Shown here piece by piece: positions 10,563 to 57,065 of a stretch of DNA of 64,000 nt. Made by a program: the position numbers and the translations under genes. Source of the stretch: Marsupella aquatica. Lineage: Eukaryota > Plantae > Marchantiophyta. Location: positions 20,650,857 through 20,714,856 of the forward strand of contig OZ316893.1 in assembly GCA_973895155.1 (NCBI GenBank). The letters are read 5' to 3'. The notes beneath the pieces are model-generated. The model ran no database searches, was not told the origin of the DNA, and worked only from the letters and a program-made list of their open reading frames with translations. Numbering within the stretch: position 1 is the stretch's first letter; the number at the start of each line of letters is the position of its first letter.

Positions 10563-13867
<3,305 letters not shown>

Positions 13868-15139
13868 CCTCATCATCAGCCCGTCCAGTACTCTAAAGTT
13901 TGCAGCCCCGACACCAAGTCCAGAGCTAGCCACAACTCCAGTACGTTCCCATGATCGACAACTTCTCGTGTCCGGCTCCGGTTCCCCTGCAAAGTATGGA
14001 GACCATCAAGAGTATTCATACAACAGTCTTCTCCGTATCATATTGGCGCTGATTTAAGCCATCCAACCAGCCTAGTCCTCATGGCTTCCGCCCAACCCGG
14101 CGGGTTCCCTGGATCGGAGCCACCAATGCCACTTAATTCGGCAATCATCGATCCCTCCTGGCCAACTGGAAATCCGGCCCATGTTGCTAACCGTCCGCGC
14201 ATGGTTTCTGCCGCAAGCCCAGTGTTCCATGGTCGTGGAGTGATCATCAAATGTGAAGGACTTGAATAGAGTTTAAGTGACCTTCTTTCATAGCTAGCTG
14301 CTTGACAAAACTACTCGCTCGCTAGGTCCATCCCTGATCCACATGATGAGAGCAACGCCATGCTCATGCATTATTTTAGAAGGAGTCTAGTTCATTCAAA
14401 GTTAGAATGAATTAAGAGTAACTGCTCATATATAGGACATAGCTGGAAGACATGAGGAAGATTGATTGATTTATCGTCACAAGACATGAATAAAGTGTAC
14501 AGACTACTCTGTCTCAACCTTGGTCCGTGTATACTATGTGGATTACCCCTTCCAAGGGAATCGAATTCACAGACACTTTTAAGGGAGATGTCTTGACTCT
14601 CTCCAGATCGAACCATGTTCTCTGTTGCTCAGGAACCTTAGACAGATCTGCTTTGATTTTTTCGCTAGGGAACACTGCAAGTTATCAGAGCTAGTACAAT
14701 GAAGGTCCAGAGCTAACAAACACCAAACCCAGAAGCATGTGCAAATTAAAGGCAAAGAGCTTTGGATACTACCTAGTGCTTGGGGACACCATGCAACAAC
14801 GCAATGTACACCTTTGGCGCGGTATTTTATATGTCGAGTGAGTGGTAGGGTAGAACAACTGAAGCTTATTAAAGGGGCCGACACACTTGGTTGGGTTTAA
14901 AAAATCAAAGTTCGAGCTGCTCTCGTTCTTGTATTTTGTGCTTGGGGGAAACAAAACCAAAAAACAAATCAGTGTGAGATAGTGGGTAAAACTTCTAAAT
15001 GTGTTCTCTACACTATCAATGAAAAAAATCATTTGCACATGAGTGAACATGAGTGATAGTCGATAAACCTTGCATGTTTACTCTTGAAAATGCATGAGAT
15101 TGTGGGACTAATTAAGGTGGTGGGCGAAGGGCCTTTAGA

Positions 15140-15325
15140 AGGAGGCTTCAGAGTTACTGGCTGGAGACTGGAGGGCTATGGTGGCATGTAGGCCAGCTAG
15201 ATAGGTAAGGGCTAGCTGGAGGGCGGAGGGCTACGGGATGGAGGGGGGAGAGCAATGGATGGAGGGCGGAGGGCTATGGAATGGAGGGGTTATACAGTGC
15301 TATGGGATGGAGGCTGTAGGGCTAT
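15140..15325. repeat. G-rich degenerate tandem repeat (ggagggc..atgg)
   Basis: Repeated 'ggagggcggagggcta(c/t)gg' units are visible. Confidence 0.6.
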
Positions 15326-17719: not shown

Positions 17720-18832
17720 ATGGAATCTAAAGATGTCTTTTCATTGCTGGACGAACTTCTTCCCGGTCTTCCAAATGATGTGAGCTTGAGCCACATTGCG
17801 GCAAAGTTGCCGTGGGAAATGTTTTCAGTTTTATCTGCAGTAAGTACTGGTTGGCAAAAGGCAATTCGAAGTGGATTGGTATATGATACCAGAGTTCGGT
17901 CACAGTCAACGGAGACACTAGTTATTATTCCTCACCACCAGGATCAAGGGGAGAACTGCGTTTGTCTCTATTCCCCCATAGAGAAGACTTTCTGTGACCT
18001 TCTTCCGATCCCAGATTTCGAAACTGGACTACCAGGGTCGTGGCAAATCATTCCATTGGACGGAAAAATATATGCCGTGGGAGGACCTCGTGGACTTTCC
18101 GGCTGCAAGGTGACTCGCGGCAAAAGTTTCTATATGCTAGATCTGCGGGCTGGACAGAGGGAGTGGAAAAAGCTTGCAAATATGCTAGAAGGCAGACAAT
18201 CCTTTGGATGTGGTGTGATAAGTGGCAAGATTTATGTGTTTGGGGGCATTTCTGACGAAGGAATGCCTACATCTTCATCAGAGATGTACGATCCCAAGTA
18301 CAATACGTGGTCCCCAATAAAGGCCATGATTTATGGACAAGTTTTCAATGAGGTTTTTGAAATGGGAGAGGAGCTTCTATTGCATGGCGGAATTGGAGAA
18401 AGACCTTTCTCCTCTTGGCAGATATATCATCCGGCTACCGATACTTGGCGAGGTGTACAGCGACCTACTGACATAGAAATTGGAAGTGTGTTCACCTTCC
18501 AAGGGAATCTCTATTCCTTGAGTGTCCGTGGCGTCCATGTTTATGACATATACACCAATTCATGGAGACAACAACATTCAATGTCCTGGGTTGGCCTTGG
18601 AGAGCATCACTATATGGATGTGGAGGCAAATATTACCGTTCATGCAAATAATGAGCTTGTAGTAGCAGTAGAGTCGACTACTAACGCAATTTCCTACCGA
18701 TCAAGCATCATTCAAAGCAAAGGGTTTAGCAGTGAGAAAGAAGAGATTCTGTGGGAGGAGGTGCCATACGCAGGAGATTTCTTTGACAGGCTAAGCCCTT
18801 TCCAACCATTTATGGGTACTCTTCAGCTATGA
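17720..18832 (+). CDS. Intronless F-box/kelch-repeat protein
   Basis: It has an N-terminal LLPGLPNDVSLSHIAAKLP F-box motif and kelch repeats (GKIYAVGG, GKIYVFGG, SSEMYDPKYNTW). A TATA-like 'tatataa' sits near 17444. Confidence 0.92.
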   Translation: MESKDVFSLLDELLPGLPNDVSLSHIAAKLPWEMFSVLSAVSTGWQKAIRSGLVYDTRVRSQSTETLVIIPHHQDQGENCVCLYSPIEKTFCDLLPIPDFETGLPGSWQIIPLDGKIYAVGGPRGLSGCKVTRGKSFYMLDLRAGQREWKKLANMLEGRQSFGCGVISGKIYVFGGISDEGMPTSSSEMYDPKYNTWSPIKAMIYGQVFNEVFEMGEELLLHGGIGERPFSSWQIYHPATDTWRGVQRPTDIEIGSVFTFQGNLYSLSVRGVHVYDIYTNSWRQQHSMSWVGLGEHHYMDVEANITVHANNELVVAVESTTNAISYRSSIIQSKGFSSEKEEILWEEVPYAGDFFDRLSPFQPFMGTLQL

Positions 18833-19014
18833 CGTCTGGATATGGTGCATACTGCAAACCTAACGTTAATATCCTAGCAGGCCATCTTGTTGGCATTTAA
18901 CCCTGTAGCTAGCCTTATCATCTACGAGAGTCAAACAATATAGGTCATTAGGGGTACTAATTGCCAGCCCCTGTATTATGGGCGTTTAGGTCCACTAGTG
19001 CGGTACATGAGTGC

Positions 19015-19016
<2 letters not shown>

Positions 19017-19063
<47 letters not shown>
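19017..19063. repeat. (AT)n microsatellite
   Basis: A perfect AT dinucleotide run. Confidence 0.98.
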
Positions 19064-19067
<4 letters not shown>

Positions 19068-20009
19068 GCCTGTCACTATGTACATGTATGTTCATTTCGA
19101 AACATTGAATTTGTGCCATTTTACTTATGTTATATATTCGAGCAGTTCAAGTACATGGCTTTTATGACAATTACAGCAAATTGAGTTTGGTTTTTTCTAC
19201 GTCTAAGAACTTCACCAAGTACTTTTCTCTAAAGTGAAAGTATTTGTAAAAGTCATATTTGCTAGTGGGTCAATGAATTCTTTAAAACGTTGGATTCTGC
19301 TCCACAACTACTGGAATGGATACATATATATAGGAGCCAATCTACAACCATAATACACTAATCCTGCCAAAAGTTGTCAATAGTCTATTTACAAAATGAG
19401 ATTTGGTGGGAACACTTGCTTACCATTGGATTTATGTTATAATTAATTTATTCTCACCTTTGATCAGGTACAAATGAGTGTAACCAAACAAACAAGACAA
19501 TAAAGTAGCTAGGTGCTACCTAAGTGTTAATAATTGGGAGTGAACACCTAGCTAATACAAGTTAAAGAAGAGCATAGTTTTTTTGTCACATATGAATATT
19601 CAATAGTGTACTCAATCATTACATGCTACAACATTTGTATTATTGGAAGGAAGTAGATGTATAATTAGTAATACTCTCCAAATGGGTGATCTATAATTTT
19701 GAACAATATATTTATAAGTGGGAAGAGAATTTGTGCAGTTTTGTTTTCTCTTCTTTCTCAAAAAACTAAAAATTGATTTTCATTTTAAATGTATCTTTGA
19801 GGTAATGAAAGGGGGTAGGAGCGTCTCCCATATAATACCCTATCCCACCAAAACAATAAGATAGTTTTTTTCCAAACTCATAAAAAATGGGAATAGATCT
19901 TAGACCTTTATCAAAACGTTGTTATTCTACACCATCAGATTTAATGGGAATTGAATGTAATAAAATATAGAAAATTCTTATTTCTCTAAAAAGCATTTCC
20001 TCTCACTTG

Positions 20010-20980
20010 GTTAGACTCTATGATGCGACGTTGATCTCTATCTCATGTTTCCAGTTAATTTTTATGTGCAACACGAGTTACAGAACACTACCACAACAAC
20101 TGTATGGCCAGGATAGTGCACAACATACCTCAACAACTACATGGCAAAGCTCTTTTATATGCCTCACATTAGCATCTTTTCTCACCTTCACACATTTTTC
20201 TAATTTGTACATATTTATTGCTCTTTAACATCTTTCTCTTGCCTTGACATATTTTTCTCATTTTGCCATCTTTTTCTCACATTCACATCTTTACCTCACC
20301 ATGGCATTTTTCCTCACTTGATATCTGTTCTCCCCTCAACATCTTTTTCTTTCCTCAAGATCTTTTCTCGCCTTGACATTTTTTCCTCACTTCAACATTT
20401 TTTTTATATCGCCATATTTTTCTCACCTTGACATTTTTATCTCACCCCAACATCTTTCACTCACCCTGGACATTTGTTTCTCTTCTCAACATCTTTTTCT
20501 CACCTCAACTTTTTTTTCTCACCTCAACGTCTTTTTCTCTCATAACCATCTTTTTTCATCTTGATACCCTTTCCTCACCTCAACATCTTTTTCTCACCTT
20601 GATATCTTATCTTTTTCTTATATAATTGCCATAATTTTCTCACCTTGACATCTTTATCTCCCCATGATATCTTTCCCTCTGTCACCCACGTGCGCCATTT
20701 CTTTTCTCTCGGACTCAACATCTTTACATATTTTCCTCACCTTGCCATCGTTTCTCTCCCCAACATCTCTTTCTCACCTCAATTTCTTTTTCTCACCTTG
20801 ACATATTTTTCTCTCATTGACAACTTTTTACATCTTTTTCTCTCCTCAACATCTTTTTCCTCGCCTCAACTTCTTTTTCTCAATTGGCATCTTTTTCTCT
20901 CATCAATTTTTTTTCATCTCTACATCTTTTTCCTTGCCTCAACATATTTTGTGCAACGCACTGGCATTGGGCTAGCTAGT
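20010..20980 (+). mobile_element. Non-autonomous Helitron-like element with minisatellite
   Basis: It contains an array of 'tttctcaccttgacat' units and ends 'gtgcaacgcactggcattgggctagctag|t', resembling the plant Helitron 3' motif plus CTAG-T. Confidence 0.7.
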
Positions 20981-21904
20981 CTATGATAACAATGAATGTC
21001 TGATCTATCAATTTCAAAAAATGAACACAAACTGCTGGAGCAATATATCGAGAAATGTAGATAGTGGATATAGCATGTTCGTCCTAATACACACCTATTT
21101 TGTCTTATTGAATGCACATTTTACAACAGAAATAGAGTATGGTAACTGAGTATATTTAGGACTTAATTTGACCAGGGTGGGGATTGAAAGGAACGTTGGA
21201 GCACAAGTCAGACACATATAGAGACAGCGAGGGCAGAGGGGATCCAATGCAGTCATAGGCCGTCATGCTGTCATATGGGTATCGGATGCAGCAGAAGGGG
21301 TATCCTTGGGGTATCCAAGGCAGTAGTCCGGTATCCAAGGCAATAGATATGCAAAGCACCAATTTTCAAAAACGTACATTGGTAATGCAGGGCCCAGCAA
21401 CGTACATATCTATAGGGGCAGCAAGGACCACACGATCAAGTTGGAAGATTGAGTGGTGGGGATCGGATCAAGTTGGAAGATCGAGTGGTGGGGATCGAAG
21501 GTGCTTTGGGGTTACTGCAGCCAAACCCAAATCAGCTTCAATCATTGTTTTAGGCGGGGGCAGGCCTGTGCTCTCTCGCTTGTGCTCGCTGGGGCTTGGA
21601 GCTGCAAGTCTATTCTCCTCGATTTCTCTCAATGGATCGATGGTGGCTGTGCTCTCATGTCTCTCGTGCATTCTCGTTGTTGTGCTACTCGATCTCAATG
21701 TTGCTCAATCGATGCAGCTGCCTTGCCCTCTCGCGCGAGCTAGACACAGCTGATCTGATCTGATCTTTGCTCCCGGCTGAGTGTCTGCTTCTCGGCTGCT
21801 ATCGATGCTGCTGATCTCCTGCTCTCCTGTTGCCTTTGTTTGCTCTTGCGCTCGCTGTTGATGCTGCTGATGTGATCGATCATGCTTTCTCTAGGACTCT
21901 AGGC

Positions 21905-22275
21905 TCTCGATCGATCATCGATAGATTGAAGGTGGGCTTCAATCACATCTGCCTCTCCACATCGAGTTGCTACCATCGCTGGTCCTCCATACGCTGTACT
22001 TGGTTGCTACCATCGCTGCTGCGCTCGTTGTTGCTCTCGATGCTGCTGGACTCTGCTAGACCTCTCGATGCTGCTCGTTGTTGCTGAGTCCGAGGCCCTA
22101 CTGTCGGTGCTCGTAGCTGAACTCTGCTCGATCGATCATCGATAGATTGAAGGTGGGCTTCGATCACAGCTGCCTCTCCACATTGAGTTGCTACCATCGC
22201 TGGTCCTCCATACGCTGTACTCGGTTGTTACCATCGCTGCTGCGCTCGTTGTTGCTGGGTCCGAGGCCCTACTTA
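21905..22275. repeat. ~220 bp-period direct duplication in CT-rich sequence
   Basis: 'gatcgatcatcgatagattgaaggtgggcttc...gttgctaccatcgctggtcctccatacgctgtact' occurs at ~21909 and ~22130. Confidence 0.85.
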
Positions 22276-22688
22276 GCTGCAGCGCTGCTACTGTCTCCGT
22301 AGCTCGTAGCTGAACTCCGGCTCATTCGATCAGATGCTCGCGATCCTCTCGCCATGCTACATTAATTCTGTGTGGGATGTTTATGCATCTTTGCTATATA
22401 GGTCCTGCTCGGCTCTCCTTTGATCAAGCGAAGCTGATCACTTATGTACTTATTAGTTGGTTCAGTCTCGTGTACGGGCTCGTGTATGAGCTATCTACTC
22501 GAGCTAGCTGTGCATTCGTTTCGTGCTTGTCCCCGTTTTCATTGTCGAGTGGTGTGGTGATCGTGTGTCGTGCCCACCTCTTCATTGTCTGCCGCTCCTC
22601 GCTCGTTTTCATTGTATGCCGCTCCTCATCCAAAGTTGTTGGTGCTCCGCCTCTCTCTCTCTCTCTCCGTTGTGGCTAGACTCTGATC

Positions 22689-22975
22689 CTCGGGGGGTTG
22701 ACTATCAAAAATCTTAGGAACCACGTGCGATCCAAAATAGGTATTTTTGGCAGATTTTAACTAAATTTTTAAAAAGCGTAGGAGGCAAAAGAAGGTATTA
22801 TAAACTCATGTTTATAGAATATTCTTTAATATATACCCTTTATAAAGTAAAATAGGTTATTAATATTGAAAATATAAAATATTCTTGGAATATTTTCTTT
22901 ATAAAATAGGTCTATTTATATTAGGCTAGGATCGCACGTGGTATCCCAAAATATACATTTAGTTAACCCCCCGAG
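22689..22975. mobile_element. 287 bp MITE with TIRs and an 8 bp TSD
   Basis: The TIRs are ctcggggggttgacta / tagttaaccccccgag, with an inner IR accacgtgcgatcc / ggatcgcacgtggt. The TSD ctctgatc lies at 22681-22688 and 22976-22983. Confidence 0.9.
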
Positions 22976-23809
22976 CTCTGATCGTCGTTGCTGGGTCCGA
23001 GGCGCTACTGATCCGAGGCCCTCTATAGCCACATTCAATGATGCTCGCTTTGGTCTCTTCGATGTTGTGCTAATCAGATCAGACGATGATGGTGATAGTG
23101 GGAGGCGGAGGAGCTGGCTCTGGTGTGTTTGGCCTAACAGGAGTAGTGCTTTAGTAGGAGGTTTGGTTACTTCGTCATCATCCTAGTGACAGAAAGGAGG
23201 AGATGGTGGCGGTCTAGTATTCCCCTGTTCTCGTTTTCTCTCTCGTGTAGCAAGAGGGAATGGCCACTCGGTGGAGTAGTGAGAGAGACAGTGACAACAT
23301 CAGAAGGCTGGACTCGTTTACTGCTATCCGACCCAATCTGACTGTTGCCCCGCTCTTGTACACAAGCTGGAGACAATTTCCATGTATCTTGGAGATCATA
23401 TGAAAATATACAATACTGTTCACTTAGCATTTCACTTAGGTGATCGATGTTTTTTCTGGTCTCCAGGTTAAAGGTTTAGTTGAGTGACAACACAAACCTC
23501 AACCTTTAATCTAGGGGGGAGACAAAACCTGATCCCTGCTACTTAAGGGGACTCCATTGTATCAGTCCATTCAGTTCTTCAATCTTTGAGAAGCATTGCC
23601 TTGCCTTGCCTTCGCTCTCTCAGCTTTTGATCTTCTCTTGATCTTGTTCTCGCTCCAGTGTGTAATAGTGTTTGGTCGAGGTCTCTTCAGTCCCTTGTCA
23701 GATACTTGGGTCAGTGGAGGTGGTCTCTAACATTGTGTTGCGTTTTATAAGTCTTGGTTCTTGGTCATTGAGGACTTCTTGTTCTCTGTCTCACACCAGT
23801 CCTCAGGTG

Positions 23810-24136
23810 TCTACTAACAATCCGAGTGTTTGGGTTCTCTGTGTCACTAACAGTCCTGAGGTGTCTCTAACATTGAACATATCAAGGTCATTTACTAACA
23901 GAGTCTATCAAGGTTACTAACAGGTTTGAGTTTATCAAGATTACTAACATTTTGAGTCCATCCAGGATACTTACTAACAGTCCGAGTCTGTCAAGTGTAC
24001 TAACAGTCCGAGTCTGTCAAGAAAACTAACAATCCGAGGCTGTCAAGAGTACTAACAGTTTGAGTCTGTCAAGAGTACTAACAGTCCGAGTCTGTCAAGA
24101 GTACTAGTAGTCCGAGTCTGTCAAGAATACTAACAT
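23810..24136 (+). repeat. ~26 bp tandem array (actaacagtccgagtctgtcaagagt) upstream of the Replitron ORF
   Basis: About ten degenerate-to-perfect units are visible. Confidence 0.9.
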
Positions 24137-24230
24137 CCTATGAGTATTATTCACCCTAACATCAGCTAACTTGTGTTTGTCTTGTGTCCCTTGTGTTTGC
24201 TCTTTGTCCCTTGTGTTGCTAAGAAGAGGA

Positions 24231-25918
24231 ATGTCCAGCGAATCACAACTAGGAGCAGACATCACTATCATTCCTTACACACCTGAAGATTTAGTCCAAG
24301 TGATCCTTGAAAACATAGAGAAAGAGTCATCACATTGTGTTAGGGATATTGAATTTTGTTTTCTGGTGTGCAGGTTAGGTGACGAGAAGTTGCTTGCTGG
24401 ACCATTTCGGATTTTGCAGGCAACTGAGAATACAGGGGAGGACGAAACAGTGGTAGAGTCAAAAGAAAAGACTTTTTTTTAGTGAAAACAGTTGACACTT
24501 ATCCAACTTATCTTTTTGAACTGAATTCTTGTATTTTCAATACAGATTCACCGAAGCAGTTTCCAAAGTCTAGAAACCTCTGTGCGAAGTTAACATGGCT
24601 TTTTTAAAGCGAAAAGCAAGACTTTCTATGTAGGATAAGGAGGAAGCCTCTGGTTGACAGTGTTTTTTGAATTGAGTATCACTGCACGGGATACCTGGGT
24701 TCTGATGTTCATAAGGATGAAATTCACAAGCTCCATAGTCTCATGCTTGATCATTGTGTGGCAGGTGTGATTGGGCTTGAGAGGAGAGAACTGGAGAATC
24801 ATCACCATTTTCAGATGGTTGTGAGAGCCAGAACAAAATCCGCCAGGTCTTTTGGTTTTCTTGTGAGTAAGTATATGGGTTGGCATGGGGTCAAGAATAT
24901 GAATCATGTTGGTAAAGTTATGTGTAAATGTTTGACTAATAGACAATTACATACTTGGAAAGGAATGATTGGTTATTGTTTGAAAGATTTAGGAGCTACC
25001 CATTTTAAGCAAGCATTGTTTAACATTACTGATGAAGAAGTGATTGCAAAAAACAGTTACATTCTATTTTTGGCAGAGCAGATCTGAAATCGAGAGTAAC
25101 CCTCACAAACAAGAATGTAGCTGACAGAATGTATGTGTGGCACAAATACAGGTCATAGAGACCTCTGCATGCAACATTCATTTCAACATTAACAAAGATG
25201 GTGAAATCTAGGATCTTTATGCCTGCTGCAAGTTGGATTATTCCTTTAAATGGGCAAGGAATGGATAGGAAGAGAATGACTTGTCTTTGGAAATGTATTA
25301 TTGATCCTATCAATGTATGTAGAGCTGATGTTGAAGAAGTTTTTCTTAGAAAAGCTTGGAGTGGTGGTTGTGGCAGATATTATTCACTCAGAGTCAGCTG
25401 ATGATGATGTACCTGAACTGAGAGCAGTGATTGAGGGATCTCCAACAAAGAGTTCTCTCAATCTGAAGTCCAAGGTGGAATCAAAATCTGTTCGTTTTGA
25501 TGATATGTTTGCAGAAATCAAGGTGCCTGAGAAGGGAGTGACATTTGGTGATTCTTTGAGCGAATTTGTATCATTGGCAGACAGGCAGCCATTTCCTAAC
25601 TGTAATTATTTGGAGACTATTGATGCATTGGCTGCAGAGCATTCTTCAGGGTTTAAGAAAGGAAAGGAGAAGATGACAAATACAAACATAATTGTGTTAT
25701 CTGATGATGAAAAGATAGAACCTGCACAAGTGTATATTGATGCAGGAAAAAGGAGCAAATTTAAAGGTTGCACAACACTCTTAAGAAAGAGCCTTTTTAA
25801 TGTCAAGATTGAGAAAGAAGAGAGGGGGGAAGGGGGGTTACTCTGCCTGGAGGACTGCATACACATACAATGTGGGGTTCAATTCCCCACCAGAGTCCTT
25901 GGATTCATGAAACTATGA
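24231..25918 (+). pseudogene. Degenerate Replitron-type HUH endonuclease (Rep) transposase
   Basis: Reconstructed across frameshifts it reads FELSIT (motif I-like), CVAGVIGLERRELENHHHFQMVVR (HUH), LHTWKGMIGYCLKD (catalytic Tyr), then DLKSRVTLT..MPAASWIIPLNGQGMDRKRMTCLWK. It contains stops and frameshifts. Confidence 0.8.
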
Positions 25919-33656: not shown

Positions 33657-34619
33657 CTCCACCTTTCTGCCTGCCTTTTCTGCCTGCTCCGCGGCTGCGT
33701 TCCTCCACAGATGATCCGATCACAGGGGCAGCAGAGAGAGGGGGAGAGAACTCAATCAATCAACCACCGTCTTCCACACTCGCCGGCGAGACTATACAAC
33801 CCCTCGCGCTCCCTCTACCTCAACCAAACCACCGATTTCAGCAACCCTTCGCCACTCTGCTCAACTCTGAATAGCTCGGAGAATCTCTTCGTAGTTAATT
33901 TCGAAGCTGTTGATGGATCCTCCACGAAAGGAGCAGCATTGGGGTCTCCGTAATAACAGTAGGGGCAAACTGCCATCCGCCAATTGGCCTTCCTCCTCTC
34001 TAATATAATAACAAATTGGAGTCGCCTCCTTCTTGGAACACTGCTGAACAGTAAAAGCGAGCTTTGTCAAGGTCCAAACTACACGGAGGGAATCAATCTC
34101 CTCTCGGTATCAGGTGGAGCAGAGGATTTGGAATTTGTCTTGGAACTCTGTGGCATAATCAAAACCTCCTCCTCCTCTTCGTATCATGTGGAGTAGAGAC
34201 TTTGGGATTTGTCTCGCAACAATGCATCATACTTCAGTCTTTAGCATCTTTTCAGGTCACCTACACCATAATCATGTTAGAGCTTGTAAGTACTTCGCCC
34301 TCCTTGGCTTTCACCTCCTTCATAGGGTTGAGGCCATTGGTTTTAGGGTCTCCCGGCAGGTTCGGCTTTGGGACCCTCCTTTGGGGTTTACTCCAAAGCT
34401 CTACCAGGTTTTTCAATTCTCCGTTCAGTAGGGTGTACGGCTCCTTTGTAGGTTACTTTTTTGTCTTTGTTCCTTGGTCGGCTTTTGGTTGGGGACCCTT
34501 GGCTTGTTTTTCTTGGGGCCCTTTCCCTCTTTTCCTCCCCTTCCGTGGGTTGCTTTTCTTTTGGGATCTTGTTTCCCGGTTGGCTTAATTTTTTAATTTT
34601 TTGCCCTTGGGCACTGTGA

Positions 34620-34962
34620 TGTTGAGCATAGATGACACTCGTAACGGTAAGCACATGACACATCCAACGCGCAAGTAGTCGACACAAGAGATATGTGGTT
34701 CACCTCCTCGAGGCTACGTCCACGGGAACACACAAGAGAGCTTTACTGAACTTTAAGCCCGCCGGCCATACCAAGTCTCCACAGTGTAAGCTCTCCTCAT
34801 CTCTCAAGTGGCTCCATAACAATGAGCCTAAGTTCCACTTATCCAAGCAAACACCGCTTGGCATATAGTGTGCATCCTAGTTAACCTAACCATGTCTCCA
34901 ACTATGGTTAGCCTAACTACGATTACATGTCGTAACCCTAGACCATGAGTAAATACCTAACA
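34620..34962 (+). mobile_element. Solo LTR, copy 2 (343 bp)
   Basis: It runs tgttgagc...cctaaca with a perfect 5 bp TSD tgtga at 34615-34619 and 34963-34967. Confidence 0.92.
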
Positions 34963-35006
34963 TGTGATATATACTTTGACACGTATATTCTAATTGACAT
35001 TACAAC

Positions 35007-35130
35007 GTTTTTAAGTACTTTGCCACTGGTTGTACCCTTTGGACTCAAGATTGGATGTTTTCTAAGTATTTTGCCACTGGTTGTACCCTTTGGACTCAAG
35101 ATTGGACGTTTTCTAAGTACTTTGCCACTC
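35007..35130. repeat. 51 bp subterminal tandem repeat (~2.5 copies)
   Basis: Units read gttttctaagtactttgccactggttgtaccctttggactcaagattgga. Confidence 0.9.
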
Positions 35131-35298
35131 TTAACAAGAAGCCTTAAATGATGAGTAACAAGCCCATACTTTAGGAACTCTAGCCAAAAAATCAGAAAAA
35201 CAATGAAAAGTCAGAAAAAGTGCCAAAATTAGCACCTATTTTAGAACAAAAATATGGAGCGAACAAAATGTGACATAAACTAGCTATGTTTTGACAGC

Positions 35299-38200
35299 CT
35301 AAAAATGACCAAATTCATCTGAAAATACATTCCACCAATAAATGACCTCAAATACAACACTATTATCTACAATGGTCTCACAATTACACGAGCTGTCTCT
35401 TGAACCAATAACTAAATCACCTCCAAAAGCCATTGTCATTTCCTCTTCTTTTCGTAGTTTAAGACTTCTGGTAAGTACTTGGCTTTCCAAGGATCTGACC
35501 CGGTTTTTGCAGCATGCCATAAAACATAAATCATTTTTGGAAAGTTGAACTCGTCGCGCTGGTCAATTCTTTCCACCTTGGCCACCCAAAATGTTTCCGA
35601 TTCTTTCTCCAGCAACAGAAATATAAGTGTTGACTTCAAGATCCGAAAAGTCTCCTTCCATATTCTCCTTCTCTGCATCTATCTTTCCTTGATTCCGATA
35701 AGGACCCACGTATATATCTCTGGTAGGTCCGTATACTCTCTCTTCAATTTCCTCTTCATTGACAAGGACTCTGGGAACTTCAGCAGCAACAGCAATCTCC
35801 CCTTGGGAACGTGGCCATTGAAAAGGGAAAATCAATGGTCTTTGATCAAGGAGCAAGGATTTATTCAATTCCCGCTACTCTTCAAAAAACATTCTCCACC
35901 AGTTCACTTCCTCTTCTGAGAATAAAGTTTCAACCGCAAGTATTCCCTTTTGAATCTCATTTAACAAATCATCCATCTCCTTCAAAGTCATTCTTGAAGA
36001 ACTAGACATATTTGGTTGAGTCCTTGTAACGTTCTTATCCCCCTTTTTGAAAAGGGGTAATCCGGGAGCACAACCCATCACCTTTCCTGGCTCCTCTTCC
36101 CGGCCTCAAATTTCATGCCTCTGTCAGGTTTCCAAGTTGAGTCCGTGGAAAACTTCTTCCCCCATTGGGTTGGAACTTGATCTTCCAACTTGTCAAGTGC
36201 AAATTTGTATTGGTGGTGGAAGGTAACATTTCGAATCCTTTCAATGACTAAAGGTGGATCTGAGAAGGCATATTGACGGAAATCATATGTTTCCTTTAAA
36301 AGAGTGATATTTGGTTGGGGTTGATATGATTCGCAAATAATATCACATAGGCTTTCGTATGTGAAAGCCTTAGACCTTGCTAGTCGTTTACAAAATCGAC
36401 TGAACATTTGATCTATTTGGTCGTGTGTGTGTCCAACCAACAAGAATCCTAGTTTGATTTTCCGAAAAACCTTTCTTCGAATTAACATATGAAGATAGGC
36501 AAAGAGTAAATTATTTTTATTTTCTCTACTGGTATTATCAAGTTGAAGATAGAGAACAGGTGGCAAGCCACCAGGCTTTTCTTCCCATTCGTGAAACACA
36601 CTTTGCAAGATTGTGACTATCAAGTTTCCATCATTATGCAATACAGGATAATTAAGAAATACTCTTGAAAATAGTGCACCATTGAAAACCAGGCATCCGA
36701 CAACGTGCATTTGGATCAAACATGTTTCGTCCACCGATTTTGGGGGACGCAGCCAATGAGGCAACCTTGTCTTCTTTTGATCCATCCCATCAATGACAAC
36801 TCCCAAATATTTATCAGGATTTGAAAAACATTTCTTACGATGCTTCGAGAGTTTCTCACGTTCTTTGGATTGTTGGTCTCTATATTTTTGTAACATAATC
36901 TCCCCTCGCCCTGGAAAAACAACTTGTTAGTTTCTTACTAGAAATCATGTGCTAAGCCATATTCTTGAAACAAAAAACTTGTCAAACTTGTAAGTAACTT
37001 ACTCTTTTTGGTCTCCGAGACAACTTTGTCCCAAATTGATTTGAACTCCTCGCAATCCGCGCAAGCACTGAATCGATTGACTGGAGGAATCTTCACATGA
37101 CCAAATTCTTGAACCCAAACTTTCAAGAATTGTCGATAGGATATTTTTGATGATTCATCAATCTTGGCATAGTTGGAATCGTAGATCTTCCATACCTCCA
37201 ACTTTGAATAATTATCCGGTAAATGTGAAACTTCTTTATTTGGCAATGTTTCCACGTGTGTCTCAAAAAATGACCTAAGCCAACTGACCAAGACTAATCT
37301 TTTAACAGATGGAGGGCGTCCAACTGGTTTAGAATATCCTAAGTCTTGGTTGTCTAATTTCACAATTCTATTTAATCTCTGATTGCCAACGCAAAATATA
37401 AGCTTGAAAGCTTTCCGACAAATACTCTTTAATTTGACCAAACGTGTAAGATATAGTCTGCCTCCCTCCTTCATTTTCGTCTCGCTTTATAAGCCACTAC
37501 AAAGATAAAGATAGATCTTGAGATTTCTGCCTCAAAAATTTAGAACGCGCCTCACGAATTTCTTTTGGAGATAGACTTAGGAGACAATGACTCTGACAAC
37601 AGTACTTACTATTTGTTTTCTTGATATCCTCCCTTTCAACTTTGTTTCACACAAAGTGGCATTGCTCATATGTTTGTAACGACTAGATGCCACTAGAACA
37701 TCATCATCCTCCTCACTCTCCAAAGACTCGCTATCATTCGATGATGAAATGGTCACCAACATTTTCTTCTGAACATCCCGAGATTCCAGACCTGCAGCCT
37801 TCGGAGATGGAGGCTCTTCCTTCACTCTATGCAGCCTTGGAATACCTGAGCGTATTTCAGAAATCCCTCCATTACCGTGTAAGGACCCTTTCAATATTTT
37901 CCTAGGGGCCCTCTCCACCAGGTTGGTTTCCCTATTTGAGTTTCCGTGACTTGATCCGCTCCCTGCCCCAACACCATGACTCCCAGGTAAAAATGAGGAA
38001 CGCACATTAGAATTCCTTTCTGGAATACTTTTCAATAACACTGGTCGTCTAGTTTCTTCCCTCATTCCCCTGTGAAATGTTTCCGACGTTGGCTTACCAA
38101 AGGTTTTACTTTTTGGCATTTGCTTCAGCCGCTAAACACTTTGGAGACTGCAAAAATCTCCGTCATTTGGCCCACTTAGTGCCTTCTTCGTCTTTCCAAA

Positions 38201-38583
38201 TCCAGTCTTCATGAATTCATGAGACCGTTTCCTAGACATCCCAATAGACATTGAACCTTCCACATTACTACCCAAATTGTCCTTTGTTGGTGACAAAGGA
38301 GACACAACTTGATGTCCAGGGGGACCGATACTCTTGCTGATACTCTCCAAGGAGTCAGAGGAGCTCCCTGACCTCTCCTTACCACCGACCAATGATTTCT
38401 TCCCACTAATTGCAAGTCGTAAAGGAGTACGTTTTAACTTGCTCATAGGGGTGGGGGTGGCATATCTAAAATAGTAGTTATTCTAGGGATATCTGGGCCA
38501 ACCACTGTGCAGGGGCCATCCGACAATGAAACATCATCAGAAACTCCATCTGAATAATCATCTGATTCGTAACATGCCGCCAT
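35299..38583 (-). pseudogene. DUF7869 / Sola-like DDD transposase, interrupted by stops and frameshifts, with at least one intron (~36913-36996)
   Basis: Catalytic-like motifs are VIDGMDQKKT, LQLDNTSRENKN and FLLVGHTHDQIDQMFS. Upstream motifs are CCQSHCL, ICRKAFKLIFCVG, SHLP..SKLEVW, F..VW..EFGHVKIP and CADC. There is an in-frame TAG at 38132-38134. Confidence 0.85.
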
Positions 38584-38659
38584 TGGAAAAACTAGTGCAA
38601 ATTGACAAGAAACTCAAAAAATCAATAAAATCTAACAAATCTCCTCAAAATAATGACCA

Positions 38660-39200
38660 AGAGTCATGAATAAACGAGCCTATTTATAGTTTTTCACGGA
38701 TTGTTGAGACTTCTTAACTTAAAAAATATCAGATATTCATGAAATTTATGAACTTTTTCTCGTTAATACCCCCAAATATTCATGAATAATTGGCCCAAAA
38801 ACATTGATTTATCATGATTTTGTGTTAATTTTACTAAGTCACGCCTGATCCGTGATTAGTATGTATAACCAAGTAACAGGGGGCAGCCCATTCATTTTCA
38901 CTCGATGTCATTTGGATTTCCTTTGTAAAAGAGTGAAAAAAAATCTCGCTGTCCAATTTTGTGCCGTTTTCAGCACTCATCGGCGACGTGTCGCGAGTTG
39001 TAGTGGTCGCGCTTCATTTCGACCCTATTTTAGGTAGTAATTTAGACCTTGGGTGATTTCTTCACATCACCCTCCCTCCGAACCCCATTTTCAATACCCT
39101 TCTGTATCTCCGAGGTGTACATGCAAAGAGGGAAGAGACTCCCTTCATGAATTCATGAAGGTCGGTGCGAGAGGGAGACTCCCTTCATGAATTCATGATA
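38660..39200. promoter_or_regulatory. Divergent promoter region with a cluster of TCATGA palindromes
   Basis: TCATGA starts at 38664, 38737, 38780, 38812, 39145, 39153, 39185 and 39193. A perfect 18 bp palindrome cttcatgaattcatgaag lies at 39143-39160 and is nearly repeated at 39183-39200. Confidence 0.65.
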
Positions 39201-39364
39201 GGAGTCCTGAGGTGGACGAGAGCGTTGTTAGATCCGTAAGGACACGGCTTTAGTAGCCATTTGTTGGCACATTCTTTGGTTCTGTGGCACTTTGCCTCGT
39301 AGGTTGGGGTTGAAGTGGACTGATTTTGTGGTATGTTTTCAGGTTTTAAAGATCAGGCGGAAAC

Positions 39365-42300
39365 ATGACAATGTCGCAGGAAGAGCTGGTGGATGACATC
39401 TTTTTGCGCCATCCTTTGATGGACTTCCACAACTCATCCTGGACGATTTCCTTAGGGACGGAAACATGGAAGAATCCCTTCCTAATGTTGTGTGTATTTG
39501 AGGGGCTTCCATCGGGGGCATTAGGGTGGGTCAATTATGGCCGTATTGATGTATTTCGACGGGGCGACGAAGTTGTGAACATGTTGATCACAACAAAGGA
39601 AACGTCGACTTTGATTGTCGTGGATGTGGAGAGGTTTTCCGGAACGGCTGCCACCTGCTATCTCGATGAGGACATCGATAGCATCATTGAGACTGTCAAG
39701 TCTCTTTCGAGTGAGGAACGTTACCACGACATCGCGAGAAAGATTTCCGGTTTTGTGTTCGAATTTCACGCTAGCACTTTAAAGAGTGCAATCCGAAAAT
39801 CGCGAGAGATTCTCTGGAAAAGATCAGCAGAGAAGGGGGTAAGTCATCCACCCAAATCTGGGGCTTCCGGTGTTCCTTCTGGATCCAGGCCTAGCATTTT
39901 ACCCGATGACATTTTGACCGTGGTAGCGCCTACAACCTCCCGTGAAGCAGCAGCATCTGGAGGGGGATCTCAAGTTGGCAGATCATCCCAGGGAACGGCT
40001 TTGACTGGTGGGTTGGCACAAGGTACGACTGGAACTTGTACTTCTTCAAAGAAGCGACCTGCTATGACTCTTGAGCTTGCCAAGCCCAGTGCTCCAAAGT
40101 CAAAAAATAAGACTTTGGAGAAAATTCCGACGCATTTGGAGCAAAAGGCTCAATCAATGTCAATGGATGCACAGGTATTGTACCAGGAGGAGATTCTGGG
40201 AAGATGTGGTGTTCAAGAGGAGACCGTGACGGTTGACATTGGTCAACTTTACCCTCCAGTGAGAGAGAAGGCTATGGGCTTGCCCATTTACCAGGTTCGA
40301 CACATCCAACCATATTTCTTGACCCAATTGACCTTGCGGATGAAGACTGTAGGTGCCAGTCCACTTGCAGCTCCGTTTGTCCTCTTGGTGGATCCGAAGG
40401 AGTGTGCTAGTAGGCAAGACTTTGATTTTTCAAGGAAATCTGATTACCATTATTATTTGATTGGGGGCAACCATTCAGCCTGTGCCAAAGCAGACCTTGC
40501 TCTTCAGTTCCCTAACAACAAGGCATTTCAAAGAGTGCAATCTTGGATATTTGCGGGATTGAGTGTGCAAGAGGCAAGAAACTTGGCGTGGAGTCACAAT
40601 ATTGATTCTAAATTTTGACAACAAATGACGACAATCCAGAGAGTAAATTATATTCACATGAGATTTGTGGAGAATGGATTGTCGTCCAACCAGGATTTCA
40701 AGAAAGAGTGTGCTACTGAAATCAATCTCAAGGATTGGGGTGTGCGAAAGGATGTTGAGGTTCTTAATGCCAACGATAATTTATTTCAGTTGGCATTCCG
40801 ACAAGATCCTGTGTGGTCATTTGTGAGGCAGATTTGTGACAAGTGGGAGATGTGTGAGATCAAAGGTCAAAAAGGAGACAAGGGCAAGAAGAAAGTCTCT
40901 AAGTCTGGAGATGCCAAATTGCCTTATGAGGACATGAAATTAACAGAGTGGAGACACATGCAGGCCTTGAAAGATCCTGATATGATTTGCCAAGTGTTAC
41001 AAAGAGTTCTTACTAAAGAACTCTCTTTACAGGAAATGGGTCACGAATTTACTCAACACAAATTTCACATGCAGGTGCAGAAGGCCTTCCTCACGTGTTT
41101 ACACGAGGAGAGTTGGTCAGGTTGTAAAACCAAGTACCCTGAGCATTGCACAGAAAATGTGCTTAAGAATTTCGTACCTGTTTTCCAGACATGGGTAAGA
41201 TTTTGTCACCTTTCTTCGAATGATTGTTTGAATTCATTGAATATTTGGAATCCTTGTTTCTAATTGTAAGGTTCCCTTTTGTAGAAAGATACCACCTCCC
41301 GGAAAAAGAAGGGAGATGAGGAAGGCAAAGATCTCAAGTCATTCCCGGAAAAATTCAATGCGCATATTGTGCAAGCGCAAAATTGGCTATCCATGAAGAC
41401 TTCTAGTCGGCAAACCCAAGAGGGGGAACTTCATCCAAATTCTTTTGAGCATCCAGAGTTTGGTGATGTGCACTATGATATTTTTACTCATGATGCTCAG
41501 CGATTACACGAGGTGGTTCCGGGTCGGGCTTACACATTAGCTTTAGTGGATATCCCCTACGGGTTTGCCTTGCCTGGATGTCTTCATGAGGACACTACTG
41601 GATGGGGAATTGAGGAGATCACAAAAATGGTCCAATCTTTCAAGGTGGCTACTACTACAAAGTTGTGGCGTATTATCATTCACCACAGCCTTGACCAATA
41701 TGAGGCCATCAAGACTGTTTTGAAAGCGGAGTGTAATGGAGGGTTCCAGAATTGTGTGTGGTAAGAAATATTTGTTTTTGAAAAAAACAATTATTAGTTG
41801 TTCATGATTTCATGAACCATGTTTCTAAGTTTAAATGACTCCTTGACTTTTTGTGACTTTTCAGGGTTAAGGATAATGTGAAGAATGCTGGTGGGCCAAG
41901 ATTGAACAGCAACTTTGAGTGCTTTACAATTGGCTTTCACAGCCAAGATAGTAAACGGTCATTGGAGCACTTCAATTTTGACACAAATGAATCCAGGAAC
42001 AATGTGGTTGTATGCGCAGCTGTGACTAAGAAGCTGAAACACAACGGGGATAACAAGGCAGTGAATGTCTATCAGAAACCACGTGCATTGTTAGATTGGG
42101 AAGTGAGTCATTTTAGTCAGGTTGGAGACTGGGTTTTGGATATTTGTTTAGGATCAGGGACTGGGACAACCTCCTCCTTGGCCATGGGGAGACATTGCGT
42201 TGCCATTGAGATTGACGAGCGACAGAGCAGTGTGTTGAAAGGGAGGATTCTTAACCTTGCAGATAACATTGAAGAGGAAGACGGACAGGGGGAGACGGAT

Positions 42301-42426
42301 GAGGATAGTGAGGAAGACATTCCTCAGGCCGGAGAGGATAGCGTGGTTGACGATGCCACAATTGTTCCAGAATTGACGGCAGGGACTTCCGGAACCGAGG
42401 AAGGGGAAGCGGTCCATTTGGATTAG
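39365..42426 (+). CDS. ParB/Srx-like domain fused to a beta-class N6-adenine/N4-cytosine DNA methyltransferase. Exons 39365-41194, 41285-41760, 41865-42426, with one in-frame TGA at 40616-40618
   Basis: The ParB-like motifs are PFVLLVDP...YYLIGGNHSACAK...IFAGLSVQEARNLAWSHN. MTase motifs occur in beta order: LALVDIPYG (IV), CVWVKD, QKPRALL (X), VLDICLGSGT (I), GRHCVAIEID (II). Both GT-AG introns join the ORFs in frame. Confidence 0.85.
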
Positions 42427-44758
42427 ACTAGGTAAATAGAGGGACTTGTAGCATTTGAAACCACTTGGGGTTAAGTTGGGTTATATTCTGTAAAACTTTG
42501 AGTTTGACTTAAACTCTGATGGATGAGTTTGATTTTGACTACTTTTATAAAGTGCATATTTCAAGGTTTATACAATTGTGAGAATATCATATAAGATATG
42601 CTTAGATTTTGGTGGTAAGATTCTCTTGAGTCTAGTTTGGAAAATACATACCATTTTTTGGTGGTTTTTTGGTACACATTTTTGAATATCAGGAAGATTT
42701 TGAAAAGAGAAATAAGGCTTTGGACTCATCCCTTAAGGCTTCTTGTTTCTTTGGACCCTTTTTTTTTACTAGCACTTTAAACAAAAGTGGAAAACAAACT
42801 ATTCTGGAAAAGTGGCAAGAGTTGGTGTTTCTGTGATCACGTTCAACAAAATTAGTGTTAGTAACTAATTCTCACATAACACTAATTATGGTGTACAGAG
42901 TAGTAGTGAAAACTTTGAAGATGCACAGCATTTACAATGCTTGGCTAAGCCAATGTAGAGCCCATCTTTCAAGGAACAATATCTGTGCAAGCATGTGAAG
43001 GTGGTGCACTTGCAAAACTCATTCACTATTTATGCCACATACAAGCAATTTTGAGTCATTTTGAGATCAATTGTTTATGGACAATTGAAACTCATTGCAA
43101 CGTTGGGGGACATTACGGTCCTTGTAAGCCACTACTCCAAGGAAACAGGAAAAGACAAGTAAAGAGATATCAATCAGGAATAGATTTGATAATAAGACCC
43201 AGATTGGAGGGCTGAGATTTCCAAGTCATTTTGACCAAGTGCATGGAATGACATGGCTGATAAAGCATGAGTTGACATAGGTGCTTGCTTGAATGGACCA
43301 CGATGGTTGGTGTCATGTCGACTCTGATGGAACCAGTACTTCAAACTCAAAAATAATGACCAAGGTACAAAGGAAAAGTGCTATTTGAGTAAACAGCATT
43401 AATTCAAAGTAGTCTATGCCAGTTCCAATAGTCCATCCAAGCAAACTTTGTGATCTATTGGAGCTTCAATTTCGAATTTAAAGCTCTCATTTTCAAACTG
43501 ATACCTTTCTATAACTAGTGGAAAATTTACAAACACTCAAAAATTACGCTTTGCAGATATCTACAGGTTCTGTAATTTCCTACTTTGTGGATTTTTGATA
43601 AGTCCGTGGTTGAGTTGAATGGGTGAACCCATGGAAAAGCATATTGAGTTAAAATAATCTTTAACTAGTATGATTAAGACTTTGAAAGGCTGTCAACCAA
43701 AGTAGAGTGAAAAGTTTTGGGGGCAGAAAAAAACGGATCAAAAGATCTCATGTTAGTTTGCATGAAGTGGACAGTTGCTGTCCAAATCACGCACACCTAC
43801 AGATAAGTAACCGGAATTGAACTCAGTCATCTTTGAAAACTTAGTTGACTAAATGACTAGTTAAATTTGAAATAATTTCTTATTGTGTTGCAACCCCGTC
43901 AATTATCAGTAGCTGATATTGTACATCAGTTGCTCACATCAATTGTTTGCATGTGTAACCTTCCTACTCAGTGAGGCAGCCAAGGGCTGCCAAGCAGAAA
44001 AGTCTTGAGAAGGTTAAGCCAAATGGATTTCCCCATAAATTTTCACTCAACAAGGTTGAGCAAAAAAGTGACTCAGTGAGATCAGCTGGGTGTAAAGTAG
44101 TTTCCACTGGGGAGGCTGCCAAGACAAACAAGCCCATGCCAAAATGGTGTAAGTTAGAGTTTGGGGAGGGTCCCCAGCTTCAGTGGTGTGGATGATTGGT
44201 ATGGGTGATTAATAATTGATGGGTTAAGAGCCTCTGGTTTTGAAAAGAAACGAGTGAACTCACAAAAACCAATGAATCTTAATAATACATTGCAAACAGA
44301 AGCTAGAGTTGGGGTCTAGGCTGCTAGAGTAGGCTTCTAGAGTGCAACCTCTAGACCTTGAGCTCTATGGCCCCAGGGCCCCACCATATGAATGGAAAGA
44401 ATCATGGATAGATTTACTGTCAAATGATGATAATGCAAAAAAAATTGTCATCCTTTCTCTTGGGATTCAAAGAATGGGCATTGAGTCTTGTTTAGAGTAA
44501 TGAAAAGGCAATGGAGAAATGTGACTTGGCAAGGGCTGCAACATTCTGGGTTCCCAGAGACACATCTTTTCGAGAGGTTCCTCATTGGTCAGCACGGCTG
44601 GGAAATGCCTCCTGAGTGGGTCCTTCTGGATCACCTCAACGAACTGAGCCATGTATCGTACCAGCATCAGGAAACTCAGGAATCAGAGTATGACGACTGG
44701 ATTTGGCCCAATCCATGGAATTCAGTCCACTGTAGATGAGAGCAGAGATACAACAGCT

Positions 44759-52700: not shown

Positions 52701-53049
52701 TGTTAGTATTTACTCTTAGGTCTAGAGTTGCGATTGTATCGTAGTTAAGGTTAACTTTAGTCGCAGACTTGATTAGATTAATCATGTTGTGCACACTCTA
52801 TAACCAAGCGGTGTTTATTTGGAGAGTGGGAACTCAGGCTCATTGTTACGTAGCTAGTTGAGAGATAGAGAGAGTTGCCTTGCGTTGTGGATGCTTGGTA
52901 TGGCCGGTCGGCCTAATGTGCAGTAAAGCTCATGTGTGTTCCCGTGGACGTAGCCTCATGTGGAGGTGAACCACGGATCTCTCTGTGTCGACTCTTGTGT
53001 GTTGGATGGTTCATGGGCTTGTCGTTGCGATTGTCGTCTATGCTCAACA
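52701..53049 (-). mobile_element. Solo LTR, copy 3 (inverted)
   Basis: It runs tgttagtattt...gctcaaca, is the reverse-complement homolog of 34620-34962, and has an imperfect TSD caggt/caagt. Confidence 0.88.
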
Positions 53050-55305: not shown

Positions 55306-55777
55306 ATTTTTGTGGAAGTGAAACCCCTAAGGAGGCCCCCAAGGGCTGTCTAAACAGCAATCGATAACTCCCACGATAACTATTACTGATGTACGTGAAC
55401 GTCTTCCTAGAGGGGCAGACGGTGACTGCCACGCCCTACTTTTGCAATGCCCTAATTGTCCTATAACCTACCTAGCTAATAAGTTAACCTATCTAGCTAC
55501 TAGGTTATACTAGTAAAGGTAACCTACCTAGCTACCAAGTTATCCTAAGTTAAGGTAGATCAAATTATGGGGAGGGGTTGGAGACCCCTAATAATAGGAT
55601 GGTACTTATACGGGAATCTGGGAAATTGCACCAATATGCAAAAACATCCACCAATTTGAAGATTTCCTCCCTTTATTGGGTTGCTTTGCCTTTGGGATAA
55701 TGTCTCCTAGTTTGGTCTTTTTTATTCCATTGGGATCTTGTCTCCAGGTTGGGCATTTTTGTTCCTTGTTATTATTA

Positions 55778-57065
55778 TACTACATCAATGCCCGTGCGTT
55801 ACACAAAAGATGTTGTGAAGAAAAAATATGTCGCGTCGCCCAAGATGTCCGATTAAGAAAAAAAATGTCGTTAAGAAAAAAAATGGTGTCGCCTAAGATG
55901 TCGTTACGAAAAAAGATGTTGTTAAGAAAAAAAGATTTGGTGCTGCCCAAGATGTCATTCAGAAAAATAATGTCATGTCACCCAAGGTGTCATTGGGAAA
56001 AAAGATCGTGTCACCCAAGATGTCGTTAAGAAAAAGATGTTGTGGCACCCAGGATGTCCTTAAGAAAAAAGATATCATGTCACCCAAGATGCCGTCAAGG
56101 AAAAAGATGTCATGACACCCAAGATGTCTTTAAGAAAAGTGATGTCATGTCGCGCAAGATGTCATGAAAAAAAGGTGTCATGTGGCCCAAGATGCCATTA
56201 AATTAAGTTAAAAATGTCGTTAAGACAAAAATTGCACAAAACATGGTGTGGTGAGAAAAACATGGTGAGGTGAGATATCAAGGTGAGAAAAGAAGTTGAA
56301 GTTAGTGAGAAAAAGACGTCGAGGTGAGGAGAAGATGTCAAGGTGAACAAAGATGATGATGAGAAAAAGAGATGTCAAGCTAAGAAAAAAATATGTCAAG
56401 GAGAGAAAAGATGGCGAGATGAGAAAAATATGTGACGATGAGGAAAAGATGTTGAGGAGAGAAAAGATGTCGAGGGTGAGGGAAACTTGATGTTGTGGTG
56501 AGATGAAAACGTGAAAGTGAGAAAAAGGTCAGATTTCTAGATGAAAAAAATGTCAATGAGAAACAGATTGTTCGGGTGAGGAAAAGAAGCTGAGGTGAGA
56601 AAAAATGTCAAGGAGAGAAACAGATGTGAAGATGAGGAAAAGATGTCGAAAAGAGAAAATATGTTGAGGGTGAGGGAAAGATGTTGCAATGAGATAAAAA
56701 TGTTAAGGTGAGAAAAAGATAACATGTCGAGGTGAGAAAATATGTGGAGGTGATTAAAAGATGTCAAGTCAGGTGAGAAAACATGTCAAGGAGAGAGATG
56801 TCAAGTCAGGTGAGAAAACATGTCAAGGAGAGAGATGTCAAGTCAGGTGAGACATGTCAAGGAGAAAAACAAATGCCAAGGACAGGAGAGATATTGAGGA
56901 TGAAAAAATGGCTGTGATGAGATAAAGATATCAATGTGAAGAAAATGGGGAGATGAGGAAAATATATGAAGGCAAGGTAAAGTTTTATGGTGGTGTTCAA
57001 CAACACGTGCATTGCACATAGAAATTGGAGATGCGAGATAACGGTCACCATTGCATAGAGCCTAA
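55778..57065 (-). mobile_element. Non-autonomous Helitron-like element with minisatellite (inverted copy)
   Basis: Its reverse complement ends 'gtaacgcacgggcattgatgtag'. It has internal gagaaaaagatgtc/cccaagatgtc arrays, and its 5' segment matches the copies at 8450 and 20010. Confidence 0.7.

Follow-up and report, generated by a model that had tools for sequence, protein, structure and literature searches.

A decayed Sola1-type transposon of Marsupella aquatica with a gene for a ParB-fold amino-methyltransferase protein

The window analysed here (64,000 nucleotides of Marsupella aquatica, Marchantiophyta; contig OZ316893.1, positions 20,650,857 to 20,714,856) contains what is very probably one decayed member of a multi-copy family of Sola1-type land-plant transposons; in it, a cargo gene encoding a ParB fold and a beta-class amino-methyltransferase (MTase) accompanies the transposase gene. 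A fuller reading, in which the cargo protein would bind palindromes of its own element as a dimer and regulate the element through local N6-methyladenine (6mA), falls in our judgement a little short of an even chance. An earlier note on this DNA, made from its letters, took such a combination to be possibly new; the same pairing and the idea of self-methylation have in fact been published for Ectocarpus (PMC12477816). What is added here is the land-plant case, its streptophyte relatives and a candidate palindrome that is conserved by position.

The limits of the element are given by its terminal inverted repeats (TIRs) and by the target-site duplication (TSD) around them. Contigs from read sets (runs X1 to X5) were used as evidence for copies.

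35133..42747, no strand: whole transposon copy, Sola1-type, decayed (TIRs and TSD; about 100-fold depth over the flanks in run X1)
35133..35164, plus strand: left TIR, 32 bp, beginning AACAAG (inverted-repeat match)
42716..42747, minus strand: right TIR, 32 bp (inverted-repeat match)
35129..35132, plus strand: left 4-bp TSD, TCTT (letters directly outside the left TIR)
42748..42751, plus strand: right 4-bp TSD, TCTT (letters directly outside the right TIR)

The two 32-bp repeats are 84% identical overall and perfect over their outermost 15 bp. TCTT adjoins both of them (the background chance of 4-mer identity at the same spacing is 0.0047). Single-copy contigs start at 42719 (run X4) and 42722 (run X3), as expected if shared 31-letter words stop at about 42750; at the left end, one contig each in runs X2 and X4 has different letters before 35131. 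The TIRs, the TCTT duplication and the contig starts therefore define an element of 7,615 bp. The earlier note was right to see a single pair of inverted repeats around both genes, but with the TSD directly outside them these repeats are terminal and not subterminal, and its outer bounds (34963-42880) were misplaced: position 34963 is the first base of the 5-bp TGTGA duplication (34963-34967) of a solo long terminal repeat (LTR) at 34620-34962. We also discarded CACCATAAT..ATTATGGTG with TA flanks (34264-42893) as the ends of the element, since the TCTT duplication assigns them to an outer host repeat. The host of the insertion is this older repeat of about 660 bp (34264-42893, in the parts 34264-35132 and 42752-42893), which also harbours the solo LTR.

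The transposase gene occupies the left half of the element.

35436..38583, minus strand: transposase pseudogene, DUF7869 (profile match, homolog alignment, contig differences)

As the earlier note had proposed, it is a DUF7869 transposase on the minus strand, where the open reading frame at 36081-36926 matches the Pfam profile with an E value of 3.2e-51. Its D-D-D residues lie at approximately 36791, 36539 and 36413, and Asp is found at these positions in 85 of 91, 117 of 120 and 104 of 111 ungapped rows, respectively. The gene is predicted to start with the ATG at 38583 and to have an intron at 37002-36911; homolog support begins at 37393, and the part upstream of this position is a prediction from the window. 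As read here, the gene is broken by five frame changes (near 38452, 37632, 37429, 36100 and 35604) and three in-frame stops (at 38134, 37499 and 35877). Its closest relatives with a named source are from Riccia sorocarpa (47-59% identity), while other proteins reach up to 81%. A DDD transposase that groups with the reference Sola1 transposases is a defining feature of Sola1, and the Asp pattern and the DUF7869 match may point towards it. The element shares with Sola1 the 4-bp TSD, TIRs and dispersed copies, and its first three end bases are as in Sola1-1_Ec32; from these traits we infer that it probably belongs to Sola1. The head-to-head layout seen earlier also holds, the transposase ATG (38583) and the methylase ATG (39365) opening two divergent genes.

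The cargo gene consists of three exons on the plus strand, as first read.

39365..41194, plus strand: exon 1, with an N-terminal domain, a low-complexity linker and the ParB/Noc-fold region (40199-41194); stop at 40616-40618 (splicing, structure)
41285..41760, plus strand: exon 2, with MTase motif IV (DIPY) (splicing, motif alignment)
41865..42426, plus strand: exon 3, with QKP, motif I and an acidic tail (N6_N4_Mtase profile match, splicing)

Removal of the two GT..AG introns (90 and 104 nt) gives 955 codons with a single in-frame TGA at codon 418, and all of the motifs named earlier are present (GGNHS at codon 367, DIPY at 699, WVK at 769, QKP at 839, VLDICLGSGT at 859 and GRHCVAIEID at 877). 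Both introns are supported by two metagenome loci, L001 and L002, because the coding match is interrupted there at the same two places; a further intron is predicted in the 5'-untranslated region (UTR), at 39034-39342. The N-terminal domain (39365-39780, about 140 amino acids) is conserved in close relatives, with 39% identity to L001, and has no Pfam match; L001 shows in this domain an apparent extra intron (its positions 636-1100) that has no counterpart in the window copy. When the ParB and MTase regions are compared with L001 and L002, the proportion of synonymous differences (pS) is 0.67-0.80, near saturation, and that of nonsynonymous differences (pN) is 0.13-0.29, in six of six comparisons; pN is 0.42 for the N-terminal domain. 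Exon 3 is the most conserved part of the cargo, with 69-77% identity at near-saturated synonymous sites. Judged by these comparisons, the methylase gene family is under purifying selection.

The ParB-like part was recognized from structure only. A model of residues 279-610, built from a 51-row alignment, has a predicted local distance difference test score (pLDDT) of 91.3, and its best Foldseek matches are Noc and ParB (E = 2e-6), among 13 matches at E ≤ 0.001. With VIA, the model aligns with Caulobacter crescentus ParB over 98 residues (Z 10.3, root-mean-square deviation 2.5) and with KorB over 203 residues (Z 9.6, root-mean-square deviation 4.6), covering both domains, so that the helical part is matched as well as the nucleotide domain. 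The modelled structure thus supports the ParB/Srx fold that had been suggested from the letters. Of the two Pfam matches that the earlier note had expected, N6_N4_Mtase was found but ParBc was not (10 scanned pieces), and PHROGs and a PDB sequence profile likewise gave no ParB signal. GGNHS aligns with GHxR of two phage ParB-methylases in a weak profile alignment (probability 7%), and YQVR retains its Arg in 32 of 35 ungapped rows. In the ESM Atlas, the ParB part of one homolog (P0002, residues 320-654) adjoins fungal DUF3723 clusters (0.95-0.96), which suggests, as a lead only, that DUF3723 is a ParB-fold relative; a literature search for DUF3723 together with ParB found nothing.

The MTase part is recognized by sequence as well as by fold. 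Exon 3 matches N6_N4_Mtase in Pfam (E = 1.2e-8, 35.6 bits against a cut-off of 26.7), and so do nine of the 39 longer homologs scanned. Profile matches were obtained with M1.HpyAVI (PDB entry 5hek; 6.5e-13), CcrM (2.7e-12), N4CMT (3.3e-5) and PvuII (0.06), and the model of a full-length homolog, P0049, matches CcrM (4.2e-14). Motif IV precedes motif I, which is the beta-class order; together, these matches bear out the beta-class amino-MTase of the earlier note. Set against the canonical (D/N/S)PP(Y/F) pattern, motif IV is DIPY in the window, L001 and L002 and DPPY in the distant homolog P0169, and it begins with Asp in all 18 covering rows (22 rows in all), none being of the Ser type. Close relatives retain QKP and the glycines of motif I. 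From this pattern, intact copies probably encode an active enzyme, and the Asp-type motif IV and the adenine-enzyme matches lean to 6mA as its product without settling the matter.

A palindrome, TCATG-N4-CATGA, recurs in the non-coding parts of the element and in the 5' part of the transposase gene.

38209..38222, no strand: palindrome in the 5' part of the transposase gene (pattern search)
39137..39206, no strand: palindrome pair (39145, 39185) upstream of the methylase ATG, probably in the predicted 5'-UTR intron 39034-39342 (pattern search; L001 pair)
41802..41815, no strand: palindrome in the last cargo intron; L001 and L002 have theirs at the matching position (pattern search, locus comparison)
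38664..38817, no strand: upstream of the transposase, a group of four TCATGA half-sites surrounding a TATA-like box on the minus strand (TATAAATA, approximately 38681-38688) (pattern search)

The window holds four such palindromes against 0.18 expected in 64 kb, all of them within the element, in a count that is partly circular as the pattern was drawn from the same window. The relatives test the pattern independently: L001 has three (0 of 200 shuffles) and L002 has one (3 of 200 shuffles), embedded in otherwise diverged non-coding DNA. Their placement is shared with the window: an upstream pair about 40 bp apart (42 bp in L001) and a single palindrome in the last intron, where a loose end in run X5 also shows a half-site at the matching position. 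Fourteen of the 35 TCATGA half-sites in the window fall within the element and eight in the 779-bp spacer between the genes (38586-39364), a post hoc count in which full sites are counted twice. The centres of the palindromes vary by family and are mostly self-complementary (AATT, CTAG, ATAT). We set aside 16 viral matches to the pattern as chance, since they encode neither protein. Its conservation by position makes the palindrome a candidate parS-like site, and we think it reasonably likely, on these sequence grounds, that the cargo protein would bind it as a dimer.

The element belongs to a multi-copy, dispersed family. Per-run contig depth, which does not equal copy number, sums in run X1 to 9,600-24,800 in every 400-bp bin within the element, compared with 80-140 in unique flank bins. 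At 98% identity, deep contigs cover both genes in four of four runs at tens of times the single-copy depth; in run X2, for instance, the depth is 1,253-1,304 for the transposase and 1,692-1,761 for the methylase, compared with 35-42 for single-copy contigs. No RNA data set was listed as containing the element, which does not bear on its expression. Other copies differ from the window at six of the eight transposase lesions (35604, 35877, 37429, 37499, 37632 and 38452). The methylase stop at codon 418 sits where close homologs carry Arg, and motif I contains Leu in place of the Ser seen in deep family contigs of three of four runs. The window copy is a pseudogene for both the transposase and the methylase. 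The ends, TSD, depth and folds sustain the mobile two-gene element with a ParB-fold and amino-MTase cargo that had been proposed, while this particular copy is dead for both genes.

How an intact copy would most likely work can be outlined as follows. The cargo would be expressed from the divergent promoter and its product would dimerize, as beta-class MTases are described as acting as dimers; the ParB-type helical domain of the dimer would bind the TCATG-N4-CATGA palindromes, and the MTase would write adenine methylation at or near them. Such methylation could tune both promoters, the cargo's own and that of the transposase. Its effect might be self-activation or protection from silencing by 5-methylcytosine (5mC), or else repression.

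Several observations weigh against this reading. In the register of the weak profile alignment, 31 of 51 rows have Ser at the position that we take to be that of the GxxR (P motif) arginine, with Arg outside the six commonest residues, and the isolated Noc DNA-binding domain gives a Z of only 4.9. On the model, the cargo would act like a ParB scaffold, but it lacks this arginine, one of the marks of a CTPase. Motif IV, moreover, is not DPPY in the window and varies among relatives (DIPY, DFPY, DAPY, DIPH, DFPC). This drift, with KorB among the closest folds, would suit a binding-only regulator of the KorB kind, whose ParB part represses or licenses the transposase and whose weak MTase domain serves for dimerization or nucleic-acid binding. 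We consider this unlikely in view of the motif IV Asp held in every covering row, the QKP and motif-I glycines kept in close relatives and the conservation of exon 3 above all other parts. That an active enzyme would write N4-methylcytosine (4mC), for example in CATG, in place of 6mA appears improbable: beta-class folds serve both bases, some enzymes with an Asp-type motif make 4mC, and N4CMT and PvuII are among the structural matches, but the Ser-type motif IV is absent from the 18 rows and adenine enzymes give the strongest matches in both sequence and fold.

Other difficulties concern the sites. The palindromes lie at promoters and introns and not at the TIRs, and the upstream ones of L001, whose outer arms differ, are perfect over 32 bp, which a hairpin or cruciform would also fit. 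They might then be hairpins in the pre-mRNA, or extruded single-stranded DNA, which the protein would bind or methylate and so control how it is itself spliced or expressed. Of the four full sites, three are in predicted cargo-gene introns, and from family to family the centres and arms change without losing their self-complementarity. We nevertheless find this quite improbable, as TTCATG itself is conserved, one window site has a non-complementary centre and the half-sites upstream of the transposase TATA-like box are probably not transcribed; ParB and Noc proteins, for their part, read double-stranded palindromes.

The remaining difficulties concern the linkage of the two genes. No second complete copy, no empty-site joint and no contig spanning both genes was seen among the listed contigs; methylase contigs in run X3 reach up to about twice the transposase depth; and, in small samples, methylase and transposase locus tags are never adjacent (6 × 10 in Riccia, the nearest being 31 apart, 4 × 3 in Chara and 6 × 1 among Gb identifiers). 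It is nonetheless very improbable that the methylase gene is present only as a passenger, or as an independent repeat that sits by chance in this copy: a single TIR pair and a single TSD surround the two genes, no further ends were found inside them, depth is of a similar order over both, half-sites of the cargo palindrome recur at the transposase promoter, and Ectocarpus shows the same pairing (PMC12477816).

The relatives place the cargo gene in streptophytes. A homolog search of 1.84 billion representatives gave 227 matches at E ≤ 0.001. The sources among 20 looked-up homologs include Riccia (six), Chara (four), Adiantum (two), Ptychodera (two) and Clastostelium (one), and six of the 11 matches of another homolog listing carry Gb_ identifiers, which we take to stand for Ginkgo. 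By sequence, relatives are thus present in Chara, Riccia and Adiantum and probably in Ginkgo. The gene model of one Chara relative (P0045, CBR_g41648, 1825 amino acids) has two MTase-like regions and is possibly two cargo genes in tandem. In a quick tree (44 rows, midpoint root, without a prokaryotic outgroup), the window groups with environmental rows inside a 32-row set that holds all named streptophyte rows, and the animal and amoebozoan rows lie apart from this set. The tree is more in keeping with a long stay in streptophytes than with a transfer in recent times. Searches of viral and prokaryotic genome contigs found no relatives of either gene, and phage and plasmid matches are limited to the MTase part, with 24-46% identity over partial stretches. 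We may wonder whether a ParB clamp adapted to eukaryotes has for a long time been part of transposons across the streptophytes, Chara, ferns and Ginkgo included. Loading at parS-like palindromes in introns and spreading along the element, the clamp would write 6mA across it, as a transposon-encoded epigenetic system against 5mC silencing by land-plant hosts, and site and protein would co-evolve in each family (centres AATT, CTAG and ATAT). This wider scenario seems to us distinctly unlikely.

The nearest published counterpart is Sola1-1_Ec32 of Ectocarpus, an element of 21.5 kb in which a gene opposite the transposase strand has ParB-like and N4C/N6A methyltransferase domains; proteins of this type were proposed to bind the transposon that encodes them and to modify it (PMC12477816). 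Its termini are AACCG-CGGTT, its TSD is 4 bp and its best match is Sola1-1_PPa (PMC12477816 supplement). It resembles the window element in the 4-bp TSD, the AAC ends (AACCG there, AACAAG here) and the position of the ParB-like and amino-MTase gene opposite the transposase. However, it comes from a brown alga and has 282-bp TIRs and an accessory protein of 1104 amino acids, compared with a land-plant element of 7.6 kb with 32-bp TIRs and a protein of 955; the accessible part of the source names no binding site, and the likeness is one of described features. A review table lists a Physcomitrella Sola1. We found no land-plant description in a literature search that left Repbase and most subscription papers aside, so Sola1-1_PPa may already carry the gene.

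A second transposon, the Bostrychia Plavaka (EnSpm), has the accessory genes PAG2 and PAG3, and inverted-repeat arrays beside the ParB-like PAG3 were proposed as its site (bioRxiv 10.1101/2025.02.11.637652). A transposon-borne PF01555 methylase, ParB-like domains and inverted repeats by the ParB gene are common to both; on the other hand, Plavaka belongs to another superfamily, and its methylase is fused to SET and its ParB to a 2-oxoglutarate (2OG) oxygenase, in separate genes. ParB-linked methylases were described in phages and chlorophytes by Iyer et al., with few such enzymes in land plants (PMC4738411). The phage fusions at terminase loci (Gardnerella phage AB1 ORF20 and Streptococcus phage Javan93) likewise combine an N-terminal ParB-like domain with a beta-class MTase, but they are about 415 amino acids long, have DPPY, keep the GHxR arginine and lack introns, and they match the cargo in the MTase part only (24-26% identity). 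With the CTPase clamps ParB, Noc and KorB, the cargo shares the nucleotide-binding-domain fold, probably the helical DNA-binding domain that follows it and a palindromic candidate site; unlike them, it has Ser for the GxxR Arg, no ParA and an MTase in place of the C-terminal dimerization domain, at 9-19% identity. According to a survey of ParB proteins, divergent versions of the fold bind CTP, ATP or GTP. Marchantia DN4MT1 (motif IV TSPPY, from a preprint) and bdelloid N4CMT (SPPY), which the earlier note had offered for comparison, are also eukaryotic beta-class amino-MTases of prokaryotic type. They are not the closest comparison, because motif IV has Asp in 18 of 18 rows and not Ser; these are SPPY host enzymes that make 4mC, whereas the cargo has DIPY, a ParB fusion and a place inside a transposon.

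Earlier transposon-borne ParB-methylases were described in algae from sequence only, with self-modification as a proposal. The compact land-plant family provides a concrete candidate site, which makes it possible to test directly for binding, for base specificity and for an effect on how the transposase is expressed. 6mA and 4mC are disputed marks in plant genomes; should such enzymes prove active, they would supply these genomes with sequence-specific 6mA or 4mC and represent a new kind of anti-silencing cargo.

Around the element, the window holds other repeats. The older repeat of about 660 bp that hosts the insertion has short inverted ends (CACCATAAT), TA flanks and 2.5 copies of a 51-bp unit, with partly similar stretches at 55663-55752 and 9743-9773, and is probably MITE-like (resembling a miniature inverted-repeat transposable element). 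The solo LTR inside it has TG..CA ends and the TGTGA duplication; two further copies lie at 52701-53049 and 8740-9161, and the family reaches extreme depth in the read sets. Degenerate 19-bp tandem arrays at 20163-20956 and 55805-56879, in opposite orientation, are 67% identical over 726 bp with a strong base skew and are possibly the ends of another transposon family; smaller ones lie at 8466-8713 and 9183-9402. Finally, the window has pieces of a peroxidase gene (5236-5695, 10404-10859 and 12784-13864; at least two similar copies) and also FKB95-type kelch and GH31 genes.

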